From IMG/VR virus record IMGVR_UViG_3300035698_034402, positions 20,989-84,988 of that record: a stretch of 64,000 nt of DNA. One strand, 5' to 3'. Of this stretch, positions 13,137 to 61,349 are shown piece by piece. How positions within the stretch are numbered: the stretch's first letter is position 1; the number at the start of each line of letters is the position of its first letter. The notes beneath the pieces were generated by a model. The model was not told the DNA's origin. It did not search any database and was given only the letters and a program-made list of their open reading frames with translations. The DNA is from a virus. Both the position numbers and the translations under genes were made by a program.

Positions 13137-13664
13137 ATGCATCCGGGAACGGCGGTAGGCTACGGTAAGAAGGCCCAGGACTGGTCGTATCTGACGCCCA
13201 AGAATGCGTTATACGTCCAGACTGGGAATATCACCGATCCTACGGATATCCCCGATCTTGCGATTGTCGACACGACGGTGACTCGCAAGGGCGATCCGAT
13301 TGATCGAGCGCGCCAACAGACGCTAGTGATCTACGCCGTGCCTCTAACAGGGGTAACGTTGTCGAAGACTGCGACTTTGCAGCTTTGGATCGAGGTCGAT
13401 TGGAATACAGAGCAATGTTCAAATATCGGCAATCTTTCGTCTTCTTCGGACTGGGAGTGTCCGGCTTACGGACAACCGGAAGATCTTGATGAAGCGGATC
13501 ATTGGGCAGTTATCGGGGCGGCGGTACACGACGACAATAACTCGGACGGGGCTTTGTGTTTCTCGTTCCCCTGGTTGCCCGCAGGTAGATACAAGGCAGC
13601 AATGTCCGATGGCATCAGCGGCGGAACTACCAAAGTGCTAATCATTGAGCAGCATACAGAATAG
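13137..13664 (+). CDS. Hypothetical virion protein with Cys-flanked Ser tract
   Basis: RBS gaggag; beta-rich; QCSNIGNLSSSSDWECP. Confidence 0.6.
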   Translation: MHPGTAVGYGKKAQDWSYLTPKNALYVQTGNITDPTDIPDLAIVDTTVTRKGDPIDRARQQTLVIYAVPLTGVTLSKTATLQLWIEVDWNTEQCSNIGNLSSSSDWECPAYGQPEDLDEADHWAVIGAAVHDDNNSDGALCFSFPWLPAGRYKAAMSDGISGGTTKVLIIEQHTE

Positions 13665-13676
13665 GAGTAGCAAGTC

Positions 13677-14186
13677 ATGGCTTCCTATGCGGGGTGCGCA
13701 GACACCGTAATTGAAAATGTTAGCGGCGGCACGATCTCCCGTTTGTCGCTTTTTAGCCAGAGTAATCTTGTTGACGGCGCAAGATTTACGATACCGGGCA
13801 ATGTGTGGTCCTGGTTAGTTGGTAAATTTCCAGGCATCAAAGGACGCCGAGTAATACAGATATTCAGAGATCTTCTGGATCAGCAGGTTCTGTCGCTCGT
13901 ATCGTGTCCGGAATGCCCTTGTGGCCATCAGCAGTCTTCGTCGTCTTCGTCGAATGCTGGTACTGCGGCAGCGGAGCAGTCTTCGTCTTCGTTGGATGCT
14001 GGTACTGCGGCAGTGGAGCAGTCTTCGTCGTCTTCGTCGGATGCTGGTACTGCGGCAGTGGAGCAGTCTTCGTCGTCTTCGTCGAATGTTGGTACTGCGG
14101 CAGCGGAGCAGTCTTCGTCGTCTTCGTCGAATGTTGGTACTGCGGCAGCGGAGCAGTCTTCGTCGTCTTCGTCGAATGCTGGTTAA
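13677..14186 (+). CDS. Virion protein paralog A with a poly-Ser repeat tail
   Basis: RBS aggag; N-domain, then CPECPC, then tandem AGTAAAEQSSSSSSN units. Confidence 0.7.
   Translation: MASYAGCADTVIENVSGGTISRLSLFSQSNLVDGARFTIPGNVWSWLVGKFPGIKGRRVIQIFRDLLDQQVLSLVSCPECPCGHQQSSSSSSNAGTAAAEQSSSSLDAGTAAVEQSSSSSSDAGTAAVEQSSSSSSNVGTAAAEQSSSSSSNVGTAAAEQSSSSSSNAG
13931..14183 (+). repeat. 45-bp tandem repeat (about 5.5 units) encoding AGTAA(A/V)EQSSSSSS(N/D)
   Basis: Unit gctggtactgcggcagcggagcagtcttcgtcgtcttcgtcgaat, near-identical; one 42-bp variant. Confidence 0.9.
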
Positions 14187-14225
14187 ATTCCGCTGGACGC
14201 GGTGGGTAAGCAGGAGTAATAGATT

Positions 14226-14567
14226 ATGGCTTTATACACAGGGTGTGCGGACACCGTAATTGAAAATGTTAGCGGCGGCACGATCTCCCGTTTGTCGCTT
14301 TTTAATAAAAGCAATCTTGTCGACGGGGCGAGGTTCACGATACCGGGCGATGTCTGGGCCTGGCTGACGGGCAGCTTTCCAGGTATCAAAGGGCTTCGGA
14401 TGATTAAGACGTTCCGTGATCTTATGGATCAGCAGGTTCTGTCGCTCGTATCGTGTCCGGAATGCCCTTGTGGCCATCAGCAGTCTTCGTCGTCTTCGTC
14501 GAATGCTGGTACTGCGGCAGCGGAGCAGTCTTCGTCTTCGGTTGCGGGATCGTCTTCGTCGGCGTAG
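14226..14567 (+). CDS. Virion protein paralog B (tandem duplicate of 13677-14186)
   Basis: Colinear with paralog A at +549 nt; shorter Ser-repeat tail. Confidence 0.7.
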   Translation: MALYTGCADTVIENVSGGTISRLSLFNKSNLVDGARFTIPGDVWAWLTGSFPGIKGLRMIKTFRDLMDQQVLSLVSCPECPCGHQQSSSSSSNAGTAAAEQSSSSVAGSSSSA

Positions 14568-14670: not shown

Positions 14671-14682
14671 AGAAGTGGCACT

Positions 14683-15042
14683 ATGGCTGATTTAGCTCGT
14701 TCTCACGGCGTGGATTACACGGTCGTTAAGAACCTGACCGGCGAAGCGCAGTTTCTGCCCTGGTTCCCTGGCACACAATCAGGCAGTTGGGGGCGAGAGC
14801 TGGAGCCGCATGCCAAGGTTCGCTTCTCCGGCAATCTGTTTGAGGCCCTCTCGGGGTTTCCCGATAAAAAGTCCAGCCTGGAGAATGATGCTCGGACCGG
14901 CAAAGTGGCCCTAGCGATCTGCGGTACGGCAGATCCTGACGCTTACGATGCGTTGACTCTTCAAGCTACGCCGGGTTTCGCCTGGTACGGTTGCTTGGAC
15001 TGGCATTACGAGTCTTCGTCCTCGGCCTGGGTAGTGGAGTAG
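14683..15042 (+). CDS. Distant third paralog of the 13677/14226 family
   Basis: ATG at 14683; TVVKNLTG matches TVIENVSG, VRFSGNLF matches FTIPGNVW; ends CLDWHYESSSSAWVVE. Confidence 0.55.
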   Translation: MADLARSHGVDYTVVKNLTGEAQFLPWFPGTQSGSWGRELEPHAKVRFSGNLFEALSGFPDKKSSLENDARTGKVALAICGTADPDAYDALTLQATPGFAWYGCLDWHYESSSSAWVVE

Positions 15043-15046: not shown

Positions 15047-15955
15047 ATGCCTTTTGATGAAAGCGCCTATCGCAGAATACGTTGCACCGCAGGTACGCCG
15101 GTTCATCGTATGTCCCAGGGTCAGCAGGAGACCTTTACGCTAACTATCCGAGACGAGCAGGGCGACGCGGTCGATCTCAACCAGTTTCGTGAACCTGTTT
15201 CGACTTACTCAGCCACTGCCCCCGTGTGGATGTCCTCCTCATCCTTGGCGCAGACCGAGCTGTTGTCTTCGTCGGTGAGTCAATTCCTGGAGGTTCGGCT
15301 AGCGGCCAGCGCCTGCTTGCAGTCGTCTACGACGGAATTTGAGATCGACGGCACGATTATCGACGCGGAGCTGGGGGAGGTTGAGTTTACGATCACCCCG
15401 ACTGAATCGTCCAGCCCGGGCATTTTTGTAGCCTCAGTGGGGGTCTTCTGGGGCGATATTCTTCGCTTTCAACAGATGATCTATTTCGAGTTCATGCCTA
15501 CCACTTTTACGTTGTCCACCGGCGGGCCAATTACGGTGCCGGAAGTGCGTATGGACTTGATGGACGTGTGCCCGGACGCTAATTACCTGCTCGACGAGTT
15601 GGAGTTCACGGATGCCGAGATTATCCACGCCATGCGCAAAGCGGTGGATGTTTTCAACGAGACTCCGCCGCGCGTGGTGGGTTACACCGCGGAGACGTTT
15701 CCTTTCCGCGTAGTGTGGTTGGGCGCAACAGCCGGGTACCTGTTGCGTATGGTGGCCCATCGCTACCGGCGTAACGCGTTACGCTACTCGGCAGCCGGGG
15801 TGACCGTCGCGGATCAGGAGCGTTATGCCGAATACGAGAAGATCTCGAAAGAGGCCATTGAGAAATTTGAGGAGTGGGCACAAACAATCCAGGTGTCCTT
15901 TAACATTAGCCGAGGTTACGGATCGATTGCTCCGTCGCCGTATCGGCGGGGGTAG
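15047..15955 (+). CDS. Putative head-tail adaptor/neck protein with N-terminal BppU/Ig-like domain
   Basis: N-domain FTLTIRDEQGDAVDL...IIDAELGEVEFTIT; C-domain NYLLDELEFTDAEI...RYSAAGVTV typical of large-phage neck proteins; synteny. Confidence 0.55.
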   Translation: MPFDESAYRRIRCTAGTPVHRMSQGQQETFTLTIRDEQGDAVDLNQFREPVSTYSATAPVWMSSSSLAQTELLSSSVSQFLEVRLAASACLQSSTTEFEIDGTIIDAELGEVEFTITPTESSSPGIFVASVGVFWGDILRFQQMIYFEFMPTTFTLSTGGPITVPEVRMDLMDVCPDANYLLDELEFTDAEIIHAMRKAVDVFNETPPRVVGYTAETFPFRVVWLGATAGYLLRMVAHRYRRNALRYSAAGVTVADQERYAEYEKISKEAIEKFEEWAQTIQVSFNISRGYGSIAPSPYRRG

Positions 15956-18551: not shown

Positions 18552-21446
18552 ATGAGCTACGTTGTTCCCCAAGTCAAAGTGTTTCAGGAGTTCACGCAGA
18601 CTCCCGCGGCCATTACGAACCCGCTGTACGCGTTCATCGTCGGCCCGAATTTCTATCTATGCAAATATGCCGACGGTGAGGGGGAGCTGGGTCAATATGA
18701 TCCGGATGCTGATACCGCGTACAGCTGGCCGAATCGCCCCGCTGGAGCTGTTGTGGACCAGAGTTTCACCAAGGTGTACGTGAAGGACGCCTTGTTGCGC
18801 TTCTACAGCAATACCGCTGGAGACGTGTCCGACGAAATTCTGGCGGTGTATGGCTACAACAATCGCGTCCGGGCTACAGGTGTGAATTTTGCGGCTAACG
18901 GTACCACGTATCCGCGGGACACCGGATTGCCTGCTCGCGACGTCACCGTGGGCGACATCGCCCGGGTCTTCGCTAACGTGGGCGGTACTACTTACGAGCT
19001 GTGGTCTAAAATTACCGCTCTTGTAGCGGATCAAGCTACCCCGGTAGTCGGCTCGGCAACCGCGGACTCCGACAATTCTCCCGATTACGCTGTTAACTGC
19101 TGTGGCGCGGCTAATGGGCTGGATAACGGGGCCGACGCTGCGGTATCAAACACCGGCACTGGCGGAGGGCTGCGCAGCATCGCTGTAATCGCTGATTCTG
19201 CCGGGTACGCTGGTGTCGTTGCGGGTTATCCGCGGGAGATTTACACCGTCGTGATCACCACGGCTTCCGTGGGCGGAGCTGGTGCTTTGGCTACGGTAAC
19301 TAGCGGCAGCGGCACAGACGACGCCACGAGTGTGGCTATCGCGGCTACTGGCCAGGAAATCGGCTCCCGGGGGTTGACCTTCGATTGGGGCGGCTCCGGG
19401 GAATGGCGGGTCGGCGATACGTGGGTGATTTACGCGCGGCAGGACTTCCGGGCGCCGTCTCTGACCACCGGCGGAGGGTTCGACAGTGACGAGGACACCA
19501 CCTACATTCTCGAAGTCACCGCGGGCGGTGCTGGCGGCAGCGCGCAGGTTTCGGTGTCCACGACCAATGGCCTGGACGTCAGCGGACCGCACACTGTGAC
19601 CGAGGACGTACCGGTCACGATCGGCACTAAGGGGGTAACGGTCACTTTCGGTGACGGGGTGGGCGCGTGTTACGGCGACAGCTCGTCATCATCGGCGTCT
19701 CCCTGCCCGGCGCAATTCAACAAGGGCGACAAGTGGTATGTCGCGTGTACCGGTCGGGAGGGCGAGGGATACAAGACCCTGGTGTTAGCTGACGATTTGC
19801 CGTCGCAGCTACGTGCGGCTTTCAACTCGCAAGGAGGCGCGGGCTCCAGTTCTTCGTTGGTTGAGGCTTCGGATCTCAATTTGCAGTTATTTGTCAGCCG
19901 GGATATCCAGCTGCCGCGAGAGAACTTCCCTGACGCGCCTAATGTCAACTGGACCCAGAACGCCACACAGATCATCCTGGAATCCGGCGCTAAGGTGTAC
20001 CAGAGCGACTTCCTGGACGCCTTGGGCAACTCCGTGGCTTTGAATCTGGATGCGGATAGCGACGAACTCTACAGCATCTGTTATGTGGAGTACCGGGCGC
20101 TACTGCAGACCTACGCTACAGATATTAATACCATCTCCAGCATTAGCGACGTGGTCACCACTTTGGGCGAAGTAAGCACGGATAATCCGCTGGCGCTGGC
20201 AGTCTGGTACGCTCTACGAAACTCCAACGGTACAGCGGTCAAGTACATGGCCGTGCCGACTAATGATCTCGCTGGTTACAGCTTGGCCCTGGATAAGGCC
20301 ACCGGACGTCGGGACATCTACACCGTCGTACCGACGACGCGGAATGCTGTGATTCAGAATACTATTGCCGCCCACGTGGACGAGATGTCTGATGAAGAGA
20401 AGGGTCAATGGAGAATTGCCTTTTTCAACGGGGCTTCTTCGGCCATCGATCCTCTGGTTGCGGAGGACGAGTACTACCCGATCGGCGGTACTGACCAGTA
20501 TGAAGCAGACGACTTGCTGGCAACGATCGGCGATGATCCCGACGCTACAGGTACCCAGCACACCCGAGTGACTTGGGATCCGACGGCTTATCCGGCAGGT
20601 GGCGGATTCGTGGACAAGGGCGTCCGTGCGGGCGACTTGTTCCGAATTAATTACACCGGCGACGGATTTGGCGGCTCCAGCTACGATGACTACGTAATCG
20701 ACTCCGTCTTGAGCAATCAGACCTTGAGGTTGGTCAGCGGACCCAGTTCTCCGATCACTGTGGCCAGAAAGTTCTCTGTGCAACGGAGCTTTACTCGGGC
20801 GGAGGAGGCCGCGGAATACGGCGAGAAGGCTGGATCGTTCTCCGCTCGCCGAGTTTACTACGTGTGGCCCGACGTGATCGAAGATGCTTCGGGAGTTCAG
20901 GTCGAAGGGGTCTATCTCTGTGCGGCGATCGCCGGGCTGATTTCCGGAGTTGTGCCGCAGCAGGGGCTAACCAACGTGGCCATCGAGGGGTTCAGCGACG
21001 TGACGCGGACCACGGATTACATGGCCGAGTCGCAGCTGAACGCTATGGCCGGAGCGGGAGTGTGGGTCGTAGCCGAAGATCCGGATACCGGGCAGATCTA
21101 CTCGCGGCACGAGGTAAGTACCTGTACTACCGACCTGAACTGTCGCGAGCTGATGGTAGTGAAGAACGTTGACGCTATCTCGTATACATTCTTGAATCAG
21201 CTGGCGCCGTATATCGGGCGGGCCAACGTGACTCCTCGCTTTCTGATCCAGCTGCGGCGGGCCGTTATGGGCACAGTGGATTACCTGAAGTCCAATGGCT
21301 CGACTCCGAGTCTCGGAGGGCAGTTGATCGAGGCCGAGTTGACCGAATTGCGGCAGCATGCGGTGAATCTGGATCACGTGATTGCGACTCTTAGTATCAC
21401 GGTGCCCTACCCGCTCAACGTCGTGAGCCTGCATTTGGTCATCTGA
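18552..21446 (+). CDS. Contractile tail sheath protein (964 aa, with inserted beta domains)
   Basis: N-terminal YVVPQVKVFQEF; C-terminal sheath core (NVDAISY...YIGRANVT...VPYPLNVVSLHLVI); followed by the tube gene. Confidence 0.85.
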   Translation: MSYVVPQVKVFQEFTQTPAAITNPLYAFIVGPNFYLCKYADGEGELGQYDPDADTAYSWPNRPAGAVVDQSFTKVYVKDALLRFYSNTAGDVSDEILAVYGYNNRVRATGVNFAANGTTYPRDTGLPARDVTVGDIARVFANVGGTTYELWSKITALVADQATPVVGSATADSDNSPDYAVNCCGAANGLDNGADAAVSNTGTGGGLRSIAVIADSAGYAGVVAGYPREIYTVVITTASVGGAGALATVTSGSGTDDATSVAIAATGQEIGSRGLTFDWGGSGEWRVGDTWVIYARQDFRAPSLTTGGGFDSDEDTTYILEVTAGGAGGSAQVSVSTTNGLDVSGPHTVTEDVPVTIGTKGVTVTFGDGVGACYGDSSSSSASPCPAQFNKGDKWYVACTGREGEGYKTLVLADDLPSQLRAAFNSQGGAGSSSSLVEASDLNLQLFVSRDIQLPRENFPDAPNVNWTQNATQIILESGAKVYQSDFLDALGNSVALNLDADSDELYSICYVEYRALLQTYATDINTISSISDVVTTLGEVSTDNPLALAVWYALRNSNGTAVKYMAVPTNDLAGYSLALDKATGRRDIYTVVPTTRNAVIQNTIAAHVDEMSDEEKGQWRIAFFNGASSAIDPLVAEDEYYPIGGTDQYEADDLLATIGDDPDATGTQHTRVTWDPTAYPAGGGFVDKGVRAGDLFRINYTGDGFGGSSYDDYVIDSVLSNQTLRLVSGPSSPITVARKFSVQRSFTRAEEAAEYGEKAGSFSARRVYYVWPDVIEDASGVQVEGVYLCAAIAGLISGVVPQQGLTNVAIEGFSDVTRTTDYMAESQLNAMAGAGVWVVAEDPDTGQIYSRHEVSTCTTDLNCRELMVVKNVDAISYTFLNQLAPYIGRANVTPRFLIQLRRAVMGTVDYLKSNGSTPSLGGQLIEAELTELRQHAVNLDHVIATLSITVPYPLNVVSLHLVI

Positions 21447-42206: not shown

Positions 42207-43142
42207 ATGGTTGCTGGAGCCATCACGCATACCGAATGGCTGAACGAGAACCGCAACCGGAGGTACCCCTTCTGGGATTATTGCTCGTTGAGGGATTCCT
42301 CCAGCTCGATGCAGCTGCCTAACGAGCTAATCGTGGATTTGGTCTTCCCGGTTCACGCTCTGGATCAGGACGTTTCTCAGTTCCATCTCAAAGAGCTGGT
42401 TGTCTTTGGGGGCGGAGTAACCATCACCCTGGGGTATGGCGGGGTAGCCATCGCTACTCGGACCATCACCGAGGCCGAGCACACCGAGAACAGGACCTAT
42501 TGCATCGAGGGCCTCGGAGATTTCGCCGATAGCGTGGGCCGAATCATCATCGGGCGCTTGGAGGACGTTAAAGATTACGGGGGAAGTTACGCGTTCAACA
42601 TTGCCGATGCCCGGCTCTTGCCAACGGTACTCCGCCCCAGTCTCAAAGGAGTCAGCAGTCTGCGGGTGGTTAGCGCAGATAATGACATCAGCGACCTGCT
42701 CCAGGGGGATATTGAACTGGTAGCGGGCGACAATATCCAGATGACTATTACCGACGCAGGCGGCGGAGTTAAACGTCTGAAGATATCCGCGGTGACCAAT
42801 TCCGACTTCCAAGAGAGCTGCGACTGCCCGGACGAGGCCCAGGGCGAGCCGATCAAAACTATCAATGGCGTGAGCCCCAACTCCAACGGGGAGTTTTTTA
42901 TCACAGGACTCGATTGCGTGACTATTGACAACGGTGCGGTAGCTAACGGTATTCGGATCGAGGATGACTGCGCGGAGCCATGCTGCGGCTGCAAGGAGCT
43001 GGATGTTCTACGGGACGAGATAGCCCGGCTGGGCGCTCAGCTCGCTACACAGCGAAATTTTGCTCAGCGAGCCACAGGCTCTATCGAGCAAATGCGGGAT
43101 GTAATTTTAGCTTCTAAGCTCGGGGCAGTAGTGCCGTGTTAG
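42207..43142 (+). CDS. Cys-rich tail appendage protein, paralog 1
   Basis: EWLNENRNRRYPF; IKTINGVSP; DDCAEPCCGC; C-terminal coiled coil. Confidence 0.65.
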   Translation: MVAGAITHTEWLNENRNRRYPFWDYCSLRDSSSSMQLPNELIVDLVFPVHALDQDVSQFHLKELVVFGGGVTITLGYGGVAIATRTITEAEHTENRTYCIEGLGDFADSVGRIIIGRLEDVKDYGGSYAFNIADARLLPTVLRPSLKGVSSLRVVSADNDISDLLQGDIELVAGDNIQMTITDAGGGVKRLKISAVTNSDFQESCDCPDEAQGEPIKTINGVSPNSNGEFFITGLDCVTIDNGAVANGIRIEDDCAEPCCGCKELDVLRDEIARLGAQLATQRNFAQRATGSIEQMRDVILASKLGAVVPC

Positions 43143-44529: not shown

Positions 44530-47229
44530 ATGGTAGTTAGCCAGCATACCGTGGGGAGTCTAAACGATGTCCGAGCGTATCCCTTTGCGGACAACGCTAG
44601 CTGTTGCGCTGATGACGGCAGCGCTTTGCCTGAGAGCATTTTGAACGATTGCCACGTTTGGTGGCCGGATCTTTATGGTTCGACAGGTTTTATTGCCTCT
44701 ATCACAGTGAGCCCCAATCTTATGACTTTGACCATCGCAGCAAAGCACCTCGTGACCGGCGCGATTACAGTATTAGCGGCTGTTCAGATCGCCCGCTCGG
44801 CCACACCGTATCGCAGTTATCCGGTTGAAGCTCTACAGGCCGGAGTGGGCGGTTGGGTAGCGCCTGGAAAGATTCCCGAAGAAATGACAGGAGTGCGTAC
44901 CTGGTTGTTCAGCGACCCGGACCAGGCTGCTTTGCTACCCAGACTTGCCCACGCTTACCCCGTCGGCGGGGTGCTCTCTCTGGGCAAGGAAGACAGCGCC
45001 GAAGCGCTGGACGGAAGAGTGCGTTTTATCGCAGGCACCAATATGACCGTAGAGGAGGGCTACCGCTACATCGACGGAGCGCTGACTCGTTGTATTGTCT
45101 TCGGCTTGAACTCCGAGCAGTTGCCCGAGATGTACAAGCTTTTTGCTGGGCCGTGCGGCAAGCGCCCGGAAAGCGGCACCTGTGATCGTGAGCCTTTGCG
45201 GACTATCAACCAGGTAGAGCCGGATTGCGCAGGGCTCATTTATCTGGAGATCGACGACACCAACGGAGTTCTTGCCGGGTATCCTGATATTACCGACGAC
45301 GCAGGCGGCACCGGGATCGTGTTGACTACGCCGGTGGCCTATGGTGACGTGTGCGAAACAGTCGTGCGTTTTGATCCGCTGGCGGAGGACCAGTGCGCTT
45401 CTTCGTTAAGCGAGTACGTTCCGGAGGAACCGGAGGCAGAATCATCTGCTGCATTAGTACCACAATCCTCTTCTTCCTGGGTTGCTGCCCGGAGGATCGA
45501 ATATAGCTTTTCCGATTTAGAAGCTCTTCGCGACTGGTCGCCGTTCGAGGGACTCGGCAAGGTCTCGGGGTTTCATTGGGCCATGGATCATTTGGGCAGT
45601 GATTGGAGATTTGATCGAATACCCGGAACGGTTACTGATACGGCTTTACGAGTTGAAACCGGCGCCCTGGTAATTCCGTCTTATGAGGGACCTACTAACG
45701 TAATTCAAAGGGTATTGCGAAATAACAACTGGCGAATGGGACTCGATCGACACGGCGACTTTGTCGACGTAGAACTGGACTGGGAGATTTCCGCCCTTTT
45801 GCTTTCGGAGTTAGTTGAAGACGGGTACGGACATACGCGGTCGTTACAGTTTTACATCTCGTGCGGCCTAATGACCCGCGCGTATCCGTGGCTTGGGCGG
45901 GTGCTCCGAATGAACGTCGAGTACAGCCGGGTGAGCCAGCCCGGAGAACCGGCCTGTCCTTGGAAGCACGGGATCAAGGTGGAGGTCTCCTTACAAGCGA
46001 CCTATGTTCAAATTAACTGGTTGAAGTTAACCGACAGCCAAGTTAAGTATTTTTACCGGCTGCCTAGTGAAGGAGGATTGCTTTCGTCTTCGTCGTTCGA
46101 TGCCGACGAGCTATTGCGCGAGCGCGTTCATTTCCGTTTAACTCGTCGCAATCTTCCGGACTACGCCCTCCTTCGGGGCGAGCGTTCGTCTTCGTCTTCT
46201 ATAATAGGAAGGAGCCCGTACTTAGACTGGGAATACACTTACAACGACGAGACTACTGTCGACGGCCGTTTTGATCTTAGCTACCTGGCTGGAGACGGCA
46301 CCGAAAATTGGGAGTACATGAAATTTTTTGGCGTGCGTTACGCGACTGGCTCCCAGGATGCCCCGTTCATTCAGGTCCCGCTGCGTTTGCGGAACTTGGC
46401 ACTAACAGCCACTCGCCTGGCTCGCCAGGATTGCGACGACGAGGACTACCGCGGCGATGCAGACGCGGAAACAGTGGATTATGCAGTACGTTATGACCCG
46501 ACGAACCACTGGTCCAACGACTTTGGTACCACGCGGGCTCTACGGATGTTTCAACGTCTGCCGAGTTCAACGTACCTTTTGCCGCAACAGTTCTATCTTG
46601 ATGGCGCTTATCTGGTCTACCCCCGGCAGTATCTGGACGCGGGCTTTGGTACCAATCACAAGTACGGGGTGTTGCACTGCTCAGACAGCTCCGTAGATAC
46701 CTACGTTTATTCTGCGGCCTTCAAAGGCATCAGCGCGAACCCGAAAGTAGGCGTCTTGCTGGGCTACCAGAACGACGACGCCGACACTTTCTGGGCGGTG
46801 GTTGTCGATCTTAACCGCCGGAAGATCTCCTACGGCGTGCAAGCCTATGGAATCTTTACCCCGGTGAGTTGGGAGAACTTAGTTGGTCTAGGGGACCCGA
46901 CCGACTGGCATCGTCTAGTAGTGCATATTGCCCCCGGATACCCCGGATATGTCGTACGGGCTTGGGTGAACCCTTGGTCTCCGGGATCGTCATCTGGCGG
47001 CGGGCCAAATCTGACAAAGACGATACCGATAGATTACGCTAGTCCTACGTACGCGTTGACGTCAATCTCGGCCTGGGCGCCCGGTTCGCTGACGCCGCAG
47101 GACGAGTTCGCCGACGGAGCGCCTGGGTTTTATGTCTACGGGGGTACGGCGCGGATCGCCGAGTTTACTGCTTCCCCGGTTAATGAAGACATTGTGGTGC
47201 CTAACAAGGTGCCCTGGTTACCTCGGTAA
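44530..47229 (+). CDS. Tail appendage protein, paralog 3, with C-terminal beta-sandwich (lectin-like) domains
   Basis: LNDVRAYPF; LRTINQVEPDC; three Ser tracts; aromatic-rich C-half. Confidence 0.65.
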   Translation: MVVSQHTVGSLNDVRAYPFADNASCCADDGSALPESILNDCHVWWPDLYGSTGFIASITVSPNLMTLTIAAKHLVTGAITVLAAVQIARSATPYRSYPVEALQAGVGGWVAPGKIPEEMTGVRTWLFSDPDQAALLPRLAHAYPVGGVLSLGKEDSAEALDGRVRFIAGTNMTVEEGYRYIDGALTRCIVFGLNSEQLPEMYKLFAGPCGKRPESGTCDREPLRTINQVEPDCAGLIYLEIDDTNGVLAGYPDITDDAGGTGIVLTTPVAYGDVCETVVRFDPLAEDQCASSLSEYVPEEPEAESSAALVPQSSSSWVAARRIEYSFSDLEALRDWSPFEGLGKVSGFHWAMDHLGSDWRFDRIPGTVTDTALRVETGALVIPSYEGPTNVIQRVLRNNNWRMGLDRHGDFVDVELDWEISALLLSELVEDGYGHTRSLQFYISCGLMTRAYPWLGRVLRMNVEYSRVSQPGEPACPWKHGIKVEVSLQATYVQINWLKLTDSQVKYFYRLPSEGGLLSSSSFDADELLRERVHFRLTRRNLPDYALLRGERSSSSSIIGRSPYLDWEYTYNDETTVDGRFDLSYLAGDGTENWEYMKFFGVRYATGSQDAPFIQVPLRLRNLALTATRLARQDCDDEDYRGDADAETVDYAVRYDPTNHWSNDFGTTRALRMFQRLPSSTYLLPQQFYLDGAYLVYPRQYLDAGFGTNHKYGVLHCSDSSVDTYVYSAAFKGISANPKVGVLLGYQNDDADTFWAVVVDLNRRKISYGVQAYGIFTPVSWENLVGLGDPTDWHRLVVHIAPGYPGYVVRAWVNPWSPGSSSGGGPNLTKTIPIDYASPTYALTSISAWAPGSLTPQDEFADGAPGFYVYGGTARIAEFTASPVNEDIVVPNKVPWLPR

Positions 47230-47526: not shown

Positions 47527-48366
47527 ATGAGAATTACCTACCCGTCTTACTACGAGGAGTCTGTTGATGCAGACTACCCCTTTGAATCCGGAGCCAGCCG
47601 GAACAACGGGGACGTTGTCATCGAGAACGACGTCTTTGTCGACGGACGCCTGTTCCCTCCGGACGGGCGGTACGATTTGTTCATCTCGGCAATCGAGGTC
47701 GGCGATGAAGTAAATATTACTTTGTCTGACGGGACCGGCGAAGTCGGGAGAGGATCTTTCGACCGTAATGCCCCGCCGTCGTTTCTTACTTTTTACACCG
47801 CAGATTTCGCAGTATATCTGGGCCTGCTGCAGTGTCTTTATCCGGAGACGTACGGGGGAGCGTCGCATGCCGGATTGAACAAGTTGGCTGGATGGCCGAA
47901 CGGAGTGTATCGCTTCGATCAAGAGCAGACGCGCTTTGCGGCCACTGTAGTAGTCCCCCAGCCGCAAGGCGTGGTCCGGTCCATCGTGCTGGACTCGGGA
48001 GCCGTATTTCGCGGGGATGTCGTGCTGTATGGCGAGCAGGGGGTGCAGTTAACCATCCCGAAGGAAACCGGATCTTCGTCTTCCAGCCGGGGTCCGTACT
48101 GCGGATTCGACGGGTACTTGGACAACCGTATCCGCGTGGACGTGGTTGGCGACCCATTGTTCGTCCGCCGGGGTTGCGAAGACCGCGGTGTGCAGACACG
48201 ACAGAATGTGCTGGTCAAAGGAATCGTTTTTGACAGTTCGGCTATCGAGCCGGACGCAACCGGGGCGTTTCATCTAACCCTGGCGACACTGGCTGCGGAC
48301 GAACGCCCGGGGTTGCGACTCACTACAGAGCGCCACGGGCTGCGGGTCGGCTTTCTAGGCGGCTGA
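47527..48366 (+). CDS. Tail appendage protein, paralog 4
   Basis: YYEESVDADYPF; FRGDVVLYGEQGVQL; IEPDATGAFHL; Ser tract. Confidence 0.6.
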   Translation: MRITYPSYYEESVDADYPFESGASRNNGDVVIENDVFVDGRLFPPDGRYDLFISAIEVGDEVNITLSDGTGEVGRGSFDRNAPPSFLTFYTADFAVYLGLLQCLYPETYGGASHAGLNKLAGWPNGVYRFDQEQTRFAATVVVPQPQGVVRSIVLDSGAVFRGDVVLYGEQGVQLTIPKETGSSSSSRGPYCGFDGYLDNRIRVDVVGDPLFVRRGCEDRGVQTRQNVLVKGIVFDSSAIEPDATGAFHLTLATLAADERPGLRLTTERHGLRVGFLGG

Positions 48367-48367
48367 T

Positions 48368-49270
48368 GTGGCAGACACTGACTTCTACAACCGGAATCTT
48401 TATCGGTCGTACCCCCTCGTGGGATCGCCGTATACGCTGACTGACGAGGATAGGTTCAGCCGATTTGGTTTAGTAGACTTTGGCATCGTTTTCAACGAAG
48501 CTGCCGGTTTCGACCCAGACGAGGACGAGCATCGGGTGTGGCCGGTGTCGACGAACTGGAGCGCTCCGAATGTAACCGTTACGCTAAAGATCAACGCCCC
48601 GGGTACTTTGGTACACGACGAAACGATCACGCTCCACGGGGCCTACTCCGCTTTCGAGGTAGTTCCTTTTTCTCATTCAGCGGGGGGACGATTACTTTTC
48701 TACGGCTTTGCGGTAATTGGAAGACCCGAGCTGATAGCCGCCGGGATGCTTGTACAAGTTTACGACGTTGCGCTTGAATTTATCGAACGTCGCTGCATCC
48801 AGGTTCAACAGGGACATCGGGTTGATCAACTGGCGGTAGCCAATGAAGCACGCACTGTCGCTTTACCGATGTGCCCATCGGAAAGCAGCTCCTCGCTTGC
48901 TGTTGCAGCTACTGCTTACGCGCCTGGCGGCGAAGCCCTGGAGGGGCATCTTCGCTTTCGCGCGGGGTACAACTGCAATCTCGCTGTATTGCCAACTGCT
49001 AACGCTGTCCGCTTCGGGGCTAAGGTGGGCGCAGGGGCTGGAGAAGCCTGCACAGAAATCGCTCGTACCCTCGAAGAGCAGGAGCGGTTGGATGCTGGGA
49101 TCACTTTGGACCGCGCGACGTGTTGCAATGAAGTGTTCAACAGTATCAACGGGATCCCGCCGAACGCTTCCGGAGATTTCGTTTTGCAGCCCGGCCGCGG
49201 GGTAGAAATCACTAACCCCAGCGCCCATACGATTCGGATTGCTGGACGGACGTCAATGGAGGAGTGTTGA
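48368..49270 (+). CDS. Tail appendage protein, paralog 5
   Basis: DFYNRNLYRSYPL; RVDQLAV; FNSINGIPPNASGDF; Ser tract. Confidence 0.65.
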   Translation: MADTDFYNRNLYRSYPLVGSPYTLTDEDRFSRFGLVDFGIVFNEAAGFDPDEDEHRVWPVSTNWSAPNVTVTLKINAPGTLVHDETITLHGAYSAFEVVPFSHSAGGRLLFYGFAVIGRPELIAAGMLVQVYDVALEFIERRCIQVQQGHRVDQLAVANEARTVALPMCPSESSSSLAVAATAYAPGGEALEGHLRFRAGYNCNLAVLPTANAVRFGAKVGAGAGEACTEIARTLEEQERLDAGITLDRATCCNEVFNSINGIPPNASGDFVLQPGRGVEITNPSAHTIRIAGRTSMEEC

Positions 49271-55675: not shown

Positions 55676-56122
55676 ATGTTAACGGTCTGCGTTTTCGTGA
55701 TCGGAGTTCACTACGTTCTGTTCAGTTCCTTGCTGACCAAGGAAATAGGGAGATGGTGGTATCGGCGCCATCACGAGTACTACGAAGAGACGCGACGGCT
55801 GCAATACGAACTTAGACGCGGCCAGGAATATCGCGAGAACGCTACTCATCCCGCGCTGGAAGCTGCAAAGCGGCTAGAAGATACCGAACTGGAAGAGCGC
55901 AAAAAACGTCTGATTGCGCTACAGACCCGGCGCCCGGGTAACCGGTGGCTGAGTTACTTTCTGGGTTGCTTCTTTTGCCAGACCTCGTGGATGGTGCTAG
56001 CGGTTAGCTTACTAGCAGGTTGTGGCTGGCACAGTCTGGCAAACATGCCGGGGTATGCCATGGTTATCGTGTGGATGAATTCTCTGATCTACCGGAGCAC
56101 TCCTCACGAGCGGACCCGATGA
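55676..56122 (+). CDS. Membrane protein with CxxC (DUF1360-like)
   Basis: ATG at 55676; three hydrophobic segments; YFLGCFFCQTSW. Confidence 0.55.
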   Translation: MLTVCVFVIGVHYVLFSSLLTKEIGRWWYRRHHEYYEETRRLQYELRRGQEYRENATHPALEAAKRLEDTELEERKKRLIALQTRRPGNRWLSYFLGCFFCQTSWMVLAVSLLAGCGWHSLANMPGYAMVIVWMNSLIYRSTPHERTR

Positions 56123-58107
56123 AGACCCCTCAGCAGTATCTCTTCCGGAATATGCAAGCGCCGGGTGACGTGCTAATGATGACCGCGGCGATCCGGGATT
56201 TACACCGGTGTTACCCTGGGCGGTTTATTACAAATGTGGAAACCACCGCGAGCGAACTATGGCAGCATAATCCTTACTTGCAGAAGGTGAACAAGAGACA
56301 CGCCGCTAAAATTACTCTGGGGTATCCGCTGATTCAGCAATCTAACCAGTGCGGGTTGCATTTTATTCAGGGGTTTATTGACGATCTTAACCGGAAGCTC
56401 AAGCTTAAGATCCGGTTGACCGAGTTCCGTCCGGACTTGCATTTTTCCAAAGAGGAGATGGAGAAGCCGCTTGTTGAGGGGCAGTACTGGGTACTGCTCT
56501 CGGGAGGGAAAGCTGATTTTACCACCAAGTGGTGGGATCCGGGGCGCTGGCAACAAGTCGTAGATGACTTAGAGGGGCAAGTCGCCTTCGTCCAGATCGG
56601 CAATAAGCCGAGCGGTGGAGGCGCTCGACACTACCATCCGCCGCTCACTAAGGTAGTTAATCTGGTGGGCAAGACCAATCTGCGGCAGGCTATCCGGGTC
56701 CTGCTGCATTCGTGCGGAGTGGTAACCCCTGTAACCTTCGCGATGCATGCAGCGGCTGCAATGGCCAAACCCACTATAGTTATCGCCGGGGGGCGCGAGC
56801 ACTGGACCTGGGAGGCGTATACCGAAGAGACTTTGCGACGCAATTTGGCCTACGCAGCGGGGTTGCTGTCCAAACCGCCGGGTAAACCCAAGGAATGGAA
56901 GCGTTGGTCTCCGCACACTGACGGGCGGTTCGTAGATCACGCGTTTGTGCCGCACCAGTTTCTTCACACTGTCGGCCAGCTAAGCTGTTGCAAGAACCAG
57001 GGATGCTGGAAGACCAAAGTTACCGAAGGGAGGCCGGAGCAGAACTGTAAAGACGTCGTACGCAGGCCGGGTCGTACGCCGCTGCCGCGTTGTCTGGACA
57101 TGATCACTTCTGCTATGGTAGTGAAAGAAATCTTGGAGCATGAAAAGCGAGTTAACCAAGGGGGACTTATGCCCACTGTCAAGGATCTGATTGTCGCTAT
57201 TCCCGGGGCCGACGCGCCGCCGCCTCCTCAAGATCCGTCTCCGGTGACTGATAAGCCTTCTAAGAGCGAGAAAAAGAAGAAGAAGGCAAAGCAAGCTGTG
57301 GCCGGGCGGCCATTAGCTCCGGCTCAGCTGCAGTTCAAACATCTTACCTTTCCAATTACAGTTTGCGGTATTGCCTACGGAGATCATGAGAAGCTGATCA
57401 TGCGTTGTCTGGAGAGCATTTACCGCTGCCTGGATATCAACCTGTTTCGGCTGCGCTACGGGATGAACGCGGTGCCGCTGAAAATCGAGAAACGCATCAT
57501 CGCTTTTTTGGAGGACAAGCCCAATCTCGAACGGATTTACCGGGCTAATCCGCAGGTCTATAAATATCCCCTGATGCGTCGGATGTTTCGTGATCCGGAA
57601 TTGCCGCTGGAGACCGACTGGGTCATGTGGTTAGACGACGACAGCCATATTGTCGATCCAGAATTTATCCGGCGCTTGGGGGAGGTAGTCGATATAAAGT
57701 TCTTGGAGCAGAACGAACGTACGCCAAAGGGGCATCACTGTTTTGGAAAGGTGTACTATTTCCATCTTCGCGGAGAGCAGATCGCGGCTACAAGCAAGAA
57801 CGGTAACCTGGGTTGGGTGGAACAGGCTTCCTGGTATTCCGGACGTCCGTACAATTTGGACCGTACTAAGCATCCTCCTATGCCCAAAAGCGATTTCTGC
57901 ACCGGGGGCTTCTGGTTGGTAAGCCGACAAGCGCTCCAAGATTGCGATGGGCCGGACCCGCGGCTGCGACATCGCGGCGGAGATATCATGTTCGGAGCTG
58001 CGCTGCAGCAGCAGGGCTTCGGCGTAGCGCAATGTTACGAGGGGGTGAGGATCAGCGATGCTGGAAAACGAGGTTTCGACGAGCCCATTGCGGGTATCCA
58101 AAAATGA
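56119..58107 (+). CDS. Bifunctional glycosyltransferase: GT9 (heptosyltransferase-like, GT-B) fused to a GT2-like (GT-A) domain
   Basis: ATGA-coupled start at 56119; APGDVLMMTAAIRDL, KWWD...WQQVV, VNLVGKTNLRQ, MHAAAAMAKPTIVIAGG, CCKNQGCWK...C...CLDMIT; Pro/Lys linker; WVMWLDDDSH (DxD), FCTGGFW, GGDIMFG. Confidence 0.8.
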   Translation: MKTPQQYLFRNMQAPGDVLMMTAAIRDLHRCYPGRFITNVETTASELWQHNPYLQKVNKRHAAKITLGYPLIQQSNQCGLHFIQGFIDDLNRKLKLKIRLTEFRPDLHFSKEEMEKPLVEGQYWVLLSGGKADFTTKWWDPGRWQQVVDDLEGQVAFVQIGNKPSGGGARHYHPPLTKVVNLVGKTNLRQAIRVLLHSCGVVTPVTFAMHAAAAMAKPTIVIAGGREHWTWEAYTEETLRRNLAYAAGLLSKPPGKPKEWKRWSPHTDGRFVDHAFVPHQFLHTVGQLSCCKNQGCWKTKVTEGRPEQNCKDVVRRPGRTPLPRCLDMITSAMVVKEILEHEKRVNQGGLMPTVKDLIVAIPGADAPPPPQDPSPVTDKPSKSEKKKKKAKQAVAGRPLAPAQLQFKHLTFPITVCGIAYGDHEKLIMRCLESIYRCLDINLFRLRYGMNAVPLKIEKRIIAFLEDKPNLERIYRANPQVYKYPLMRRMFRDPELPLETDWVMWLDDDSHIVDPEFIRRLGEVVDIKFLEQNERTPKGHHCFGKVYYFHLRGEQIAATSKNGNLGWVEQASWYSGRPYNLDRTKHPPMPKSDFCTGGFWLVSRQALQDCDGPDPRLRHRGGDIMFGAALQQQGFGVAQCYEGVRISDAGKRGFDEPIAGIQK

Positions 58108-58480: not shown

Positions 58481-58485
58481 AGCGC

Positions 58486-60480
58486 ATGAGCAAGCTCGTC
58501 AATTGCTGGGCAGGCAACTTCGTTTCAGTCAATAACGAATATGTGAAAGTTGGCTCCTACTCCACGTTCAATTTCATTCCCACGCTAAATGCTTTCACTA
58601 TTCAGGCCTGGGTCCGCACCACCACGGGCAACGGCGAGCAGTACATTATCGGCAAAGGCGACGCGGTTGGTTTGCAGTATGCTATTTCCTTCGCGGACCC
58701 TGATCTTAATATCACCATCGGCGACGACGCATTCTCTTTCGATATCAACGCTCTTTTGGGATATGGCTTGAATAATGACGGCTGGCACCACATTGTCGTC
58801 GTGGTGAGCACGACTACTGCTACGCTCTACATCGCTGGAGCGCAAGTGGGAGCGGCGCAGGCTCTTTCTGGCGTAGTCACCCGGCCCCGGGATCTTCTGA
58901 TCGGCGGCATCCGGAACGTTGATAATACGGATGTCAAGGGCTCCTGGGACGAGTACATAGACGAGATCGGAATTTGGGACGAGGCTCTCGGGGCGGCGGA
59001 GATTACCGCGCTTTACAACGCCGGAGTGGGTATCGCGCTGGACGACGATTCGGGCAATTACACTAGTTCAGATCATCTGATCGGCTGGTGGCGTATGGGT
59101 GACGGCGCCACCGAAAACGCCGGAGGCGTGCCGACGGCTAATATCGCCGACGAGTCGGGTAACGAACACAGTGCTACAGTTGAGAGCGACGCTTTGGATC
59201 TGGAGGTCTTCTACGCCGCGACGGCCAGCGCAGGCGGGCCGGGCGAGTGCCCGGTATTCGATTCTTCCTCCTCGCTTTACCCGGCGATTCCCCCGCGTTT
59301 GACTATCACTCGTGCTGACCAGGGCAATTTGGAGAAACGCGTTGGATTTGAAGGGGATTTGCATCGTCTGGTAGTCACCGCTACTGGCAACCAGGACAGC
59401 GTGCCCACCAAGCTTTTTGTTTACGAACGCGCCCGGGTAACTATCGGGCTGCCGTTGCAACGCCCGACTTTCCGACGGGTAGCGACGCTTCGTGACTTAC
59501 AAACTATTCCGGAGGATGCCCCCGGCACCACGATTCCCTTTGCGTATCGACGTGAACAGGCTGAGATCCTGTGCGAGACTGCGGCTAAATTAGACGAAGC
59601 TTGGATAGAGATTCAACGCCAGACGGCCACTTTGGCTCTCGACCTGAATGACTTCGGGATACCTGATGCGGACGGTGTGCTGCGCGGCGGCAGAGACGAA
59701 GCTGCGACTACAGATACCGAGACTTTCGATTTGGTAACGCCTTCTCCAACGCCTCCAACGCCGAGCCCGTCGTCATCTTCGTCGTCTCCGGTGCCTATTC
59801 AGGCGCCGCTGCGGCTGTCCTCTTCGTCATCGTTGTTTGTCTCTCCGCCGCAGCTATCTTCCTCGTCCCTGTGGGTCGATCCGCACGCGCTTGGTACAAG
59901 ACTTTATCCAGCTGTTGCTACCGATGTCGTGGCCCGGTTGACCGATGCAGCTACCGGCGTCAAGACCCTCTTCACCGATCTGGGCTTTGTCCGCTTTGGA
60001 AGAGACAGCGATCCATTGCGCACTTGGGATACATTCTTCCGGGTCCAGTTAGATATCCCCAAGTGTTCTTTGATCCAGACAGCGTATCTCATTTTGGGGG
60101 CACATACTTCGGAGACCGGGGAAGACGTCGTAGTCCGACTGTCCGATATTTACGCTGACGCTGCCTTTGCTGCCGTCGGGGCTTTCTCCGGGACTGACGA
60201 TCCGGCTAAGACAAACCAAACTCTGGTCTGGTCTCGGATCGCTGCGACAGGGGCGGGAAGCGGCTTGATAACTCCGAGTTTGGCGGACATGTTACAATTC
60301 TTCGTGGATCGCGGGAATTACACACCGGGCAGCGATTATTTCGGTCTCTGGATCAAGGAAGAAGCTTCGGACGACGGTGCTCGGCGGGACGCAACCGTGA
60401 CCGTGTCCTCTACACCGTATCTCAGAGTAGAGTACCGAGATGACCGGGAATGCCGTTCGTCCTCGTACTTGGGAGCTTGA
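58486..60480 (+). CDS. Multidomain adhesin-like protein: LamG/ConA-like, unknown domain, Ser/Pro linker, DNRLRE-like
   Basis: FTIQAWVR...DGWHHIVVV...IDEIGIWDEALGAAEITALYN...GWWRMGD (LamG); C-terminal FRVQLDIP...AYLIL...TPYLRVEY; four Ser tracts. Confidence 0.7.
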   Translation: MSKLVNCWAGNFVSVNNEYVKVGSYSTFNFIPTLNAFTIQAWVRTTTGNGEQYIIGKGDAVGLQYAISFADPDLNITIGDDAFSFDINALLGYGLNNDGWHHIVVVVSTTTATLYIAGAQVGAAQALSGVVTRPRDLLIGGIRNVDNTDVKGSWDEYIDEIGIWDEALGAAEITALYNAGVGIALDDDSGNYTSSDHLIGWWRMGDGATENAGGVPTANIADESGNEHSATVESDALDLEVFYAATASAGGPGECPVFDSSSSLYPAIPPRLTITRADQGNLEKRVGFEGDLHRLVVTATGNQDSVPTKLFVYERARVTIGLPLQRPTFRRVATLRDLQTIPEDAPGTTIPFAYRREQAEILCETAAKLDEAWIEIQRQTATLALDLNDFGIPDADGVLRGGRDEAATTDTETFDLVTPSPTPPTPSPSSSSSSPVPIQAPLRLSSSSSLFVSPPQLSSSSLWVDPHALGTRLYPAVATDVVARLTDAATGVKTLFTDLGFVRFGRDSDPLRTWDTFFRVQLDIPKCSLIQTAYLILGAHTSETGEDVVVRLSDIYADAAFAAVGAFSGTDDPAKTNQTLVWSRIAATGAGSGLITPSLADMLQFFVDRGNYTPGSDYFGLWIKEEASDDGARRDATVTVSSTPYLRVEYRDDRECRSSSYLGA

Positions 60481-60482
60481 GT

Positions 60483-61349
60483 GTGTCTCAGCAGCTTACA
60501 ATAACTCGGCAAGTCTACGCGCCTGATGCACGATTGGAACATATGGGCGCTAGGATGGATTTGACCGTTGAGCAAGGCCTGGCGGATACTCCGCTCATGT
60601 TCTCGTCTTCATCTTCGCGGATAGAAATAGTCTTTTCGTCTTCGTCGGCAGCTGCAATTGGGACCGTAGAAAGCCTCTTCCTTCACCGCGAAGTCGGCGG
60701 GGAAAGCTATTTCTTGGGAATTTGTAGCCCCCAAGATCTAGAGGCCCAGCTGGTAGACTTGCCGGACGTCGAAACAGGACTGTATCGTAAGGCCACTGTA
60801 TCTCTGACTTTCCGAACGGAGACGTTGCTGGAAGAAGCCTGGGAGGCCTTGTTAGCCGAGATTAACGCGCTCGCCGATGCCTTGACTATTCTGGCGAGTT
60901 TAGACGAGAGTGAAGAAGTTGTTTACGATTACGAACCTGCTGCCTGCCTCATTTTAACCCGAGACGCAGTACGGATTTACCCGACGAGTTCGCCGGTAGG
61001 CTACCGGCTACATGTAGCCTGTCGCCCTGGAGAACGGGGGGACAACGATCCGAAGATCTTTTTGCATCGCGACGACTTGCCGGACCGGGAACGAGAGAGC
61101 CATTCGCGGCCAATCGCTGTATGCAGCCCTGGCGATTTGGCAGACTATCCGGAGGACGCGGCAAATGCTCGCCAGTTCCCCAGCTTGTATCGAACAGCGG
61201 AATTTGATATTGTCTCGGGTGATTTGGATCTGATTCAAGAAACCTGGGCTAACATTCAAGTTGAGGTAAGCCAGCTGACTGCGGCGCTGGAATGGCAGCA
61301 AACTCAGCTTACCGGGGTGACTACTACGATAATAGGTTACAATGCCTAA
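60483..61349 (+). CDS. Protein of two tandem copies of the domain found in the middle of 58486-60480
   Basis: GTG at 60483 with ggag RBS; LTITR...LFLHRE...ICSPQDL...LYRK...EEAW occurs twice. Confidence 0.65.
   Translation: MSQQLTITRQVYAPDARLEHMGARMDLTVEQGLADTPLMFSSSSSRIEIVFSSSSAAAIGTVESLFLHREVGGESYFLGICSPQDLEAQLVDLPDVETGLYRKATVSLTFRTETLLEEAWEALLAEINALADALTILASLDESEEVVYDYEPAACLILTRDAVRIYPTSSPVGYRLHVACRPGERGDNDPKIFLHRDDLPDRERESHSRPIAVCSPGDLADYPEDAANARQFPSLYRTAEFDIVSGDLDLIQETWANIQVEVSQLTAALEWQQTQLTGVTTTIIGYNA

Follow-up and report, generated by a model that had tools for sequence, protein, structure and literature searches.

Serine tracts in the tail module of an uncultured phage

Runs of four or more consecutive serine residues, here called serine tracts, recur in predicted virion proteins encoded by a 64,000-nucleotide stretch of viral DNA (the window), which was analyzed over its whole length and corresponds to bases 20989-84988 of a single viral contig of 84,988 bp (IMG/VR record IMGVR_UViG_3300035698_034402; G000). 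The contig was estimated to be 42% complete (CheckV), every long open reading frame (ORF) in the window is on the + strand, and the G+C content is 55-59%. Thirty-three tracts were found in 15 + strand ORFs and together extend from position 13437 to 60647, a result that reproduces exactly the number of tracts, the number of genes, and the counts per gene given in a preliminary description of the window. The same description proposed that the tracts are acceptor sites for glycans installed by the glycosyltransferase (GT) encoded at 56119. Relatives were found by searching with the tail sheath and included a complete 216.5-kb genome, G001, in which the sheath is 67-69% identical, as well as more distant genomes. 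The tract-bearing ORFs are listed below, with S4 and S5 denoting runs of four and five serines.

13137..13664, + strand: 175-aa neck-region ORF; S4 at 13437-13448 (aa 101), between two cysteines and common to the G001 ortholog
13677..14186, + strand: 169-aa ORF; six tracts, at 13935, 13980, 14022, 14067, 14112, and 14157
14226..14567, + strand: 113-aa tandem paralog of 13677; three tracts, at 14484, 14529, and 14550
14683..15042, + strand: 119-aa ORF (208 aa from a GTG at 14416); C-terminal S4 at 15013-15024, shared with G001
15047..15955, + strand: 302-aa ORF; S4 at 15233-15244 within a 17-residue insertion
18552..21446, + strand: tail sheath, 964 aa (phrog_2839, E=1.2e-11); S5 at 19680-19694 (aa 377) and S4 at 19845-19856 (aa 432)
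38033..39805, + strand: 590-aa baseplate-region ORF; S4 at 39125 and 39722, both shared with G001
40387..42204, + strand: 605-aa ORF; S5 at 41296 (aa 304) and S4 at 41959, the latter shared only with G001
42207..43142, + strand: 311-aa ORF; S4 at 42297, where G001 has D-S-D-S
44530..47229, + strand: 899-aa ORF; tracts at 45466, 46084, and 46186; six tracts in the G001 ortholog
47527..48366, + strand: 279-aa ORF; S5 at 48073
48368..49270, + strand: 300-aa ORF; S4 at 48884, among the few tracts with AGC codons
49264..51306, + strand: 680-aa ORF; tracts at 49276, 49309, and 49990
58486..60480, + strand: 664-aa fiber-like protein; tracts at 59263, 59770, 59818, and 59857 in a Pro/Ser-rich linker
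60450..61349, + strand: 299-aa ORF; tracts at 60603 and 60636

Other genes to which the text refers are as follows.

11739, + strand: major head protein (phrog_2522, E=6.5e-5); no serine tract
21526, + strand: tube, by position; no serine tract
25240-26286, co-oriented between tail genes: RRXRR / IscB-IsrB-type gene (PF14239, E=7.9e-34); no serine tract
27773, + strand: tape measure, by size and position; no serine tract
36348, + strand: Baseplate_J protein (E=1.4e-8)
56119..58107, + strand: bifunctional GT, 662 aa; no serine tract

Because family scans provided the head, sheath, and Baseplate_J landmarks, the tract-bearing stretch was assigned as the neck-tail-baseplate-fiber module of a myovirus-type phage of roughly 200 kb. 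Most proteins of the module, including most that bear tracts, had no family match in PHROGs, Pfam, and NCBIfam scans. The preliminary description had named the head protein, tube, tape measure, 25240 gene product, and GT as tract free, and so they were. It had also placed the tracts between neck and fibers, a confinement that held in both genomes: 30 of 31 tracts in the G000 ORF set are in the module with 1 elsewhere, and 31 of 35 tracts in G001 are in the module (46 ORFs, 15,696 aa) with 4 in the other 240 ORFs (54,226 aa).

Serine tracts do not arise by chance

To compare the tracts with expectation, serine run lengths were tabulated for the ORFs of the whole contig (79 ORFs, 27,567 aa). There were 1470 single serines, 115 runs of two, 13 of three, 18 of four, 7 of five, and 6 of six, a bimodal distribution in which runs of exactly three are outnumbered 13 to 31 by runs of four or more. 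No second mode in run length was found in the same ORFs for A, T, G, L, V, P, E, D, R, or Q. The preliminary description had called for comparison with a composition-shuffled null, and 300 shuffles of residues inside the individual proteins gave 1.23 ± 1.09 runs of at least four serines, with a maximum of 5, against the 31 observed. We conclude that a chance origin of the tracts is excluded. As nine of the 33 window tracts fall in the two tandem paralogs 13677 and 14226, which are 87% identical over 101 aa, the tracts represent about 25 independent sites. The C-terminal tail of 13677 is a 15-aa repeat, in which blocks of six serines are spaced by a 9-residue Ala/Gly-rich unit, and is encoded by a 45-bp tandem repeat of 5.7 copies (13930-14183); its first tract alone is shared with G001. 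At the place of the 13677-14567 pair, G001 carries three shorter paralogs.

At the DNA level, all 46 occurrences of (TCN)4 on the + strand were in the serine frame, as the preliminary description had stated for the tracts, and the - strand had 4. Confinement to that frame does not by itself discriminate between selection for serine and slippage tolerated in the serine frame only. The 157 tract codons were 44% TCG, 30% TCT, 16% TCC, 4% TCA, 5% AGC, and 1% AGT, and serine codons outside the tracts included 24% AGC and 13% AGT. A mixture of TCN and AGY codons within tracts had previously been taken as a sign of selection on the protein; with AGY accounting for 6% of codons inside tracts versus 37% outside, that argument is weak. 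AGY codons are scarce in tracts because a run constrained to serine cannot pass between the TCN and AGY boxes by single changes. Counting (TCN)4 over whole genomes was considered as a proxy for tract load and was dropped, as it matches poly-Asp/Glu encoded on the opposite strand and misses AGY-coded arrays such as those of the relative G030.

One explanation on which the codon data bear is that the tracts are neutral (TCK)n microsatellites, generated by slippage and tolerated in the serine frame only. Slippage would account for the prevalence of TCG and TCT, which together make up 74% of serine codons inside tracts and 36% outside, for the 45-bp tandem repeat of one gene, and for tracts that come and go as insertions and deletions. 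The comparison of orthologs speaks against it. When the window was aligned with the G001 orthologs, which are 42-69% identical, 19 of the 33 tracts were found at the same aligned place, 2 were partial, and 12 were absent, seven of the latter being extra repeat copies and one being in a gene without an ortholog (48368, for which none was found in G001). Among 76 aligned Ser-Ser codon pairs, the same codon was used in 26. We conclude from these alignments that serine runs are maintained at the protein level, because their positions are shared between diverged orthologs in which the synonymous codons have been scrambled. Selection on the protein, as claimed earlier, is thus shown by the orthologs instead of by the codon mix, and a motif acting at the level of DNA was ruled out by the same scrambling and by the serine frame of all 46 (TCN)4 stretches.

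Further points count against slippage. Positions were kept through saturated synonymous change, the tracts are restricted to one module, and the depletion of AGY codons is explained by selection for serine within the TCN box, while the arrays of G030 use both boxes. Moreover, at two tracts no length variants were seen in contigs from 2-3 independent salt-lake metagenome runs, which is weak evidence at such low depth: contigs at least 99% identical to the window were found in four such runs, from four studies, and were short, with a depth of 2-4. We consider slippage largely refuted and very improbable as a source of the tracts.

Tracts are conserved as serine in variable segments

The tracts are in the fastest-evolving segments of their proteins, because the ten residues on each side of the 19 shared tracts were 0.29 identical between the window and G001, compared with 0.47 for the whole proteins. 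Identity within the same tracts was 0.83, a figure that is partly circular since sharing was the criterion by which they were selected; the contrast between flanks and whole proteins is not. The preliminary description had portrayed the tracts as insertions in proteins of unrelated kinds, and the ortholog alignments bore this out for variable segments. In the sheath, the tract at aa 377 is in a 13-residue, Cys-flanked insertion missing from G001, and that at aa 432 is in an insertion that is common to G001 and missing from relatives at 37-41% identity. Sheath homologs at 59-77% identity had a run of at least four serines at reference positions 424-433 in 13 of 16 cases and at 371-377 in 3 of 16, and among those at 32-46% identity runs were present in 11 of 47, mostly in the same loops (positions 283 and about 431). 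Across these 63 homologs, sheath runs recur at three hot-spot loops. One sheath homolog, P0183, is 975 aa long with 16% serine and carries 14 such runs, all at the loop aligned with window sheath residue 283.

In the 15047 family, five genomes, distant relatives included, have serine-rich sequence in the loop, and the interdomain segment around aa 304 of 40387 is Ser-rich in the window, G001, G003, and a 543-aa ORF of G005 that is of uncertain orthology; 40387 itself finds its best G005 match in another ORF, which has no run of four or more. By these alignments the two tracts look ancient, the G005 case of 40387 being uncertain. The fiber-like protein 58486 has an N-terminal ConA-like lectin domain (PF13385, E=1.2e-17), and all 4 of its tracts are shared with G001. 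In G003, the homolog of 60450 adjoins the GT gene and has two runs of five serines. A 33.6-kb structural region of Salmonella phage Arash had no run of four or more and is too distant to weigh much.

The sequence around the tracts was also sequon-like. The residue following a tract was hydrophobic or alanine in 20 of 31 cases in G000 and in 22 of 33 in G001, against a background of 0.37, and K, R, and H made up 5-7% of the flanks compared with 12-15% overall. Closure of the tract-bearing loops by cysteines was considered as a general rule and rejected: a cysteine was found within 12 residues of 11 of 31 tracts in G000 and 13 of 35 in G001, where about 8 and 12 were expected from cysteine frequencies of 1.2% and 1.8%, respectively. 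Cysteines stood on both sides of a tract in only 3 cases in each of these genomes, with 13137 and sheath aa 377 being real single cases.

One way in which serine runs could be kept in such places is if they are unmodified, hydrophilic hinges or spacers in surface loops and linkers, with the GT doing something else. Their location in indel-prone, fast-evolving segments would fit, some of them are plainly interdomain linkers (among them aa 304 of 40387 and the Pro/Ser-rich stretch of 58486), many relatives that encode the GT are without tracts, and secreted enzymes of some Gram-negative bacteria are reported to have polyserine linkers. A flexible linker does not, however, need to be a pure run of at least four serines, and runs of three are rarer than longer ones; nor does it need serine to be kept while the flanks diverge. 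Flexibility also fails to explain why runs are limited to the virion module and why, as described below, they cluster beside one enzyme family across lineages. We consider unmodified linkers an unlikely explanation. We conclude that the tracts are nonrandom, conserved as serine, located in variable segments, and restricted to the virion module.

Apart from the tracts, one contig in each of the four salt-lake runs matched the window over a 36-base segment only (16433-16468) and on both sides of the match ran on into sequence unlike the window. The loose ends had the same consensus in all four runs, and the segment is shared with another abundant element.

A GT9-like glycosyltransferase is encoded among the fiber genes

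The GT gene lies between ORFs of the fiber module, in the same orientation, and is syntenic and full length in G001, G003, and G005. The N-terminal half of the protein is a GT9-like GT-B domain (PF01075, 37.7 bits against a cutoff of 22, residues 152-270), and a GT-A domain, in which a DDD at 506-508 is invariant, makes up the C-terminal half. After the GT9 core come the invariant cysteines C290, C291, C296, C310, and C325 and the near-invariant H279 and H283. A profile built from 21 homologs matched the lipopolysaccharide (LPS) heptosyltransferases WaaF (1psw, E=7e-7) and WaaC (2h1f, E=4e-3) in the Protein Data Bank (PDB) over the donor-binding lobe, and its C-terminal half gave weak matches to GT-A enzymes. 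By the NCBIfam equivalogs the GT is not an ortholog of LPS heptosyltransferases I, II, and III, as it scored 17-30 bits against cutoffs of 135-569, including 30 bits where 185 were required.

At least 300 homologs were found, and most of those listed carry PF01075. Fusion partners of the N-domain among them include GT2, GT8, mannosyltransferase-like, GT1, methyltransferase, and Erv1 domains. In P0101, P0107, and P0119 the GT9-like N-domain is fused to an Erv1/ALR sulfhydryl oxidase (PF04777), which is an unexpected partner given the invariant cysteines of the enzyme. The nearest Atlas clusters of the GT are 75-100% viral, and no GT homolog was found in 50,697 records of cultured phages. Judged by its nearest clusters, the GT belongs to a phage-typical family.

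An enzyme of this kind could act on a nonprotein target, either the LPS or envelope of the host or the bases of the phage DNA, and merely travel with the cargo of the fiber module. GT9 enzymes of solved structure are LPS heptosyltransferases, and a preprint (10.1101/2023.12.21.572611) describes phage GT-A and GT-B enzymes that glycosylate 5-hydroxymethylcytosine in DNA, including with heptose, and that are sometimes encoded near structural genes. A route through DNA would be without two of its expected enzymes here: in the five genomes scanned, a ThyA-like hydroxymethylase (PF00303) was found in 0 of 5, where controls gave 10 of 14, and a C5-methylase (PF00145) in 0 of 5, where controls gave 9 of 14. 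A Tet_JBP domain (PF12851) was likewise found in 0 of 5, an uninformative result as the control gave no match either. In addition, the GT gene is co-oriented with, and embedded in, a late structural operon in these large phage genomes.

The glycosyltransferase is linked to polyserine proteins

To determine whether the enzyme goes with the tracts, relatives of at least 150 kb were searched for the GT N-domain, which was found in 25 of 38 (GT+). At the neck-sheath locus, 14 of the 25 GT+ records had runs of four or more serines (50 runs in total), as did 1 of the 13 GT- records (1 run). G002 and G004 were rejected as GT- relatives because their contigs stop inside the 44530 homolog, just upstream of the expected GT. 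Genuinely GT- genomes were the complete G034, with 6 scattered runs (null, 1.65), and G017, with 4 (null, 1.5).

The evidence for association was stronger around the GT gene itself. Runs were found within 10 kb of the GT in 12 of 20 GT+ relatives (113 runs in 126,280 aa), whereas the sheath loci of the same 20 genomes had 37 runs in 147,490 aa. Counts rose well above their nulls both at 64 de-duplicated IMG/VR loci, a set that overlaps the 20 relatives (at least one run within 10 kb in 46 and at least four in 22; 351 runs versus 91), and at 80 loci in prokaryote assemblies (at least one run in 49; 265 runs versus 46), with the proviso that loci in all three sets are phylogenetically nonindependent and that a few extreme arrays dominate the sums. 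One such neighbor, in G030, repeats (SSSSx) about 26 times, and neighbors of the GT in G008 and G009 are also (SSSSx)n arrays. In L234, a 461-kb contig (IMGVR_UViG_3300037247_001786), a single ORF with 58 runs was found within 10 kb of a GT homolog consisting of the N-domain only.

Gain or loss of the enzyme together with its neighbors could be seen by comparing G030 with the GT- genome G034. The two are syntenic on both sides of a five-gene block that is present, as one unit, in G030 only.

L141 (G030:100619-120618), ORFs 8462-16084, - strand: GT and four further genes

Of the four further genes, one is a 178-aa ORF and the others encode proteins of 203 aa (25% serine), 830 aa (22%), and 667 aa (46%), the last with serine codons from both codon boxes. 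A corresponding comparison of G026 with G017 was uninformative, as no homolog of the region was found. By the locus counts and the G030 block, Ser-rich genes are adjacent to the GT and are inherited with it.

The pairing extends to cultured Burkholderiaceae. In Caballeronia telluris LMG 22936 (L299 8385-13526), the GT gene abuts that of a 655-aa protein with 13 runs, and in Paraburkholderia phymatum EG181B (L327 1558-14931) it follows that of a 1066-aa DUF6519 protein with runs of up to 12 serines. The P. phymatum locus also encodes Baseplate_J, an extracellular contractile injection system (eCIS) core protein, and another GT9, this one joined to a methyltransferase; by its gene content, it is the locus of a tail-like injection machine. 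Gain and loss of the GT together with polyserine proteins, and its occurrence beside such a protein in a bacterial injection-machine locus, argue further against LPS or DNA as its target, an explanation to which we give little credence.

A different possibility is that the tracts are modified by another enzyme or chemistry, such as phosphorylation, acylation, or glycosylation by the host, and that the link to the GT is limited to long polyserine fiber proteins. The strongest evidence of association does come from long arrays in adjacent genes, most tracts of the window are far from the GT, and the module ORFs 51069, 52654, 55282, and 58058 are unannotated, without a family match. Against this, no kinase or other modifying enzyme was recognized among the module proteins scanned, and short tags and long arrays are alike in composition and context. 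We regard modification by another agent as improbable.

Serine tracts as candidate glycosylation tags

The explanation that we favor is that the serine runs act as tags at which the phage's own GT9-like/GT-A enzyme carries out O-glycosylation, a proposal for which comparative genomics is the sole basis and for which we judge the chances for and against to be about equal. We infer the following sequence of events, from the exposure of the tracts and the identity of the sugar to the division of labor between domains and the purpose of the coat. Runs of four to six serines would be short, surface-exposed acceptor tags, inserted into the outer proteins of the virion (neck, sheath, baseplate, and fibers) in variable loops, at termini, and in the linkers between domains. 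In the infected cell, the product of 56119-58107 would act as a soluble, bifunctional enzyme that O-glycosylates the serines of the tracts. Its GT9-like GT-B half would add the first sugar, possibly heptose drawn from the ADP-heptose pool of the host, and the fused GT-A half would extend it. The outcome would be a hydrophilic glycan coat on the tail.

Several observations weigh against glycosylation of the tracts by this enzyme, in addition to the nonindependence of the loci. Presence of the GT does not predict tract load: the preliminary description had held that tracts equally frequent in relatives lacking the enzyme would speak against its role, and the data go part of that way, as every sufficiently complete relative proved to be GT+, yet the tracts ranged from 35 per genome in G001 through 16 in G003 (null, 4.0) to 3 in G005 (null, 0.7). 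The neck-sheath locus was tract free in 11 of 25 GT+ records, and 8 of 20 GT+ relatives were without a run within 10 kb of the GT. The sheath tree offered five independent contrasts between GT+ and GT- lineages, in which tract status was concordant in 1-2, opposite in 0, and unchanged in 3-4, and the test was not significant (p 0.5-1). Most window tracts are 8-43 kb from the GT, yet the association concerns neighboring genes. The preference for a hydrophobic residue or alanine after the tract was missing in G003 (3 of 16). Characterized GT9 enzymes mostly act on LPS, TibC, a serine heptosyltransferase discussed below, was absent among the 10 PDB sequences matched by the GT profile at E<=1, and the phage is uncultured. 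We conclude that the overall observation is real and robust and that its interpretation is partly supported.

To our knowledge, glycosylated phage particles have so far been documented for a few mycobacteriophages. Were the tracts acceptor sites, large environmental phages and bacterial injection machines would commonly have tails, baseplates, and fibers coated with glycans, with consequences for adsorption, for stability in brine, and for evasion of recognition by hosts or predators. A four-residue tag and a soluble enzyme would also make a compact tool for site-directed glycosylation. More tentatively, and as a possibility that we place short of even, the combination of a polyserine tag with a Cys-finger GT9-like transferase may be a widespread and so far undescribed route to self-glycosylation in contractile-tail particles, both phages and bacterial injection machines, in which a run of at least four serines followed by a hydrophobic residue would be the minimal portable sequon. 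Such a sequon could be placed by evolution in any exposed loop, and one enzyme could thereby coat a dozen unrelated structural proteins. The question is directly testable, as the same pairing of enzyme and substrate is present in cultured P. phymatum and C. telluris. In the literature, we found no description of polyserine tags or GT9-like enzymes on phage virions, the supplement of 10.1101/2023.12.21.572611 being outside what was covered.

Comparison with known systems

The sequences closest to the donor-binding C-lobe of the GT are those of the LPS heptosyltransferases WaaC and WaaF (2h1f and 1psw; CAZy GT9). The phage enzyme departs from these in its additional Cys cluster, its fusion to GT-A, its membership in a viral family, and the location of its gene within a late structural operon. 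Phage DNA-hypermodifying enzymes, as described in 10.1101/2023.12.21.572611, are GT-A and GT-B proteins related to LPS or teichoic-acid enzymes, sometimes transfer heptose, and are encoded next to a C5-methylase and a 5-methylcytosine dioxygenase or next to a ThyS-type hydroxymethylase. The phage studied here differs from such clusters in that neither a ThyS-type hydroxymethylase nor a C5-methylase was found in any of the five genomes scanned.

The preliminary description had likened the GT to the serine-modifying AAH and TibC enzymes; its GT9-like nature and its genomic link to polyserine proteins were upheld, and kinship to AAH or TibC by sequence was not. According to PMC4358343, enzymes of this BAHT family are cytoplasmic, GT-B-like, and structurally akin to WaaC, and they hyperglycosylate serines of a folded surface protein. 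Their hallmarks, as given there, are an N-terminal beta-barrel, a GT-B-like core, a beta-hairpin thumb, a four-Cys iron finger, and a dodecameric ring, with the barrel of TibC spanning residues 1-97 and its finger cysteines (Cys339/342/358/370) falling late in the C-lobe. The phage GT shares the general fold class, and its invariant Cys cluster follows the C-lobe core at what appears to be an analogous position, with different spacing. Judged from alignments, there is no room in it for a 97-residue barrel because the donor-lobe motif is at residues 181-224, compared with 245-288 in WaaF, and structural matches to GT9 clusters in the Atlas span residues 4-335. A search of plasmids gave no AAH-like match (tblastn, E<=10). 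Also unlike BAHT enzymes, the phage GT is fused to GT-A, and its proposed acceptors are serine runs in loops rather than serines on the face of a beta-helix. The phage GT may work like a BAHT enzyme and, as judged from these comparisons, is not a member of that family.

Serine-rich repeat glycoproteins of Gram-positive bacteria are encoded beside the cytoplasmic enzymes GtfA/GtfB and accessory GTs; a GT-B enzyme initiates glycosylation of these Ser-rich substrates, and others extend the chain. The (SSSSx)n neighbors of the GT in G030, G008, and G009 resemble such cassettes. The serine-rich repeat systems differ in using GT4 enzymes and exported adhesins with long repeats, where the phage has short tags spread across many virus structural proteins.

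Mycobacteriophages provide a viral parallel. In the study of Freeman et al. (2023), phage-encoded GTs are said to decorate the virion proteins of the phage itself, and the phages concerned are reportedly siphoviruses that infect Actinobacteria, carry glycans on subunits of the capsid and tail tube, and use GTs of other families. Like those systems, the locus described here has a phage GT within or next to the virion structural genes. Unlike them, it belongs to a myovirus-type phage and combines a GT9-like and GT-A fusion with short polyserine tags on neck, sheath, baseplate, and fibers and none in the capsid and tube genes.

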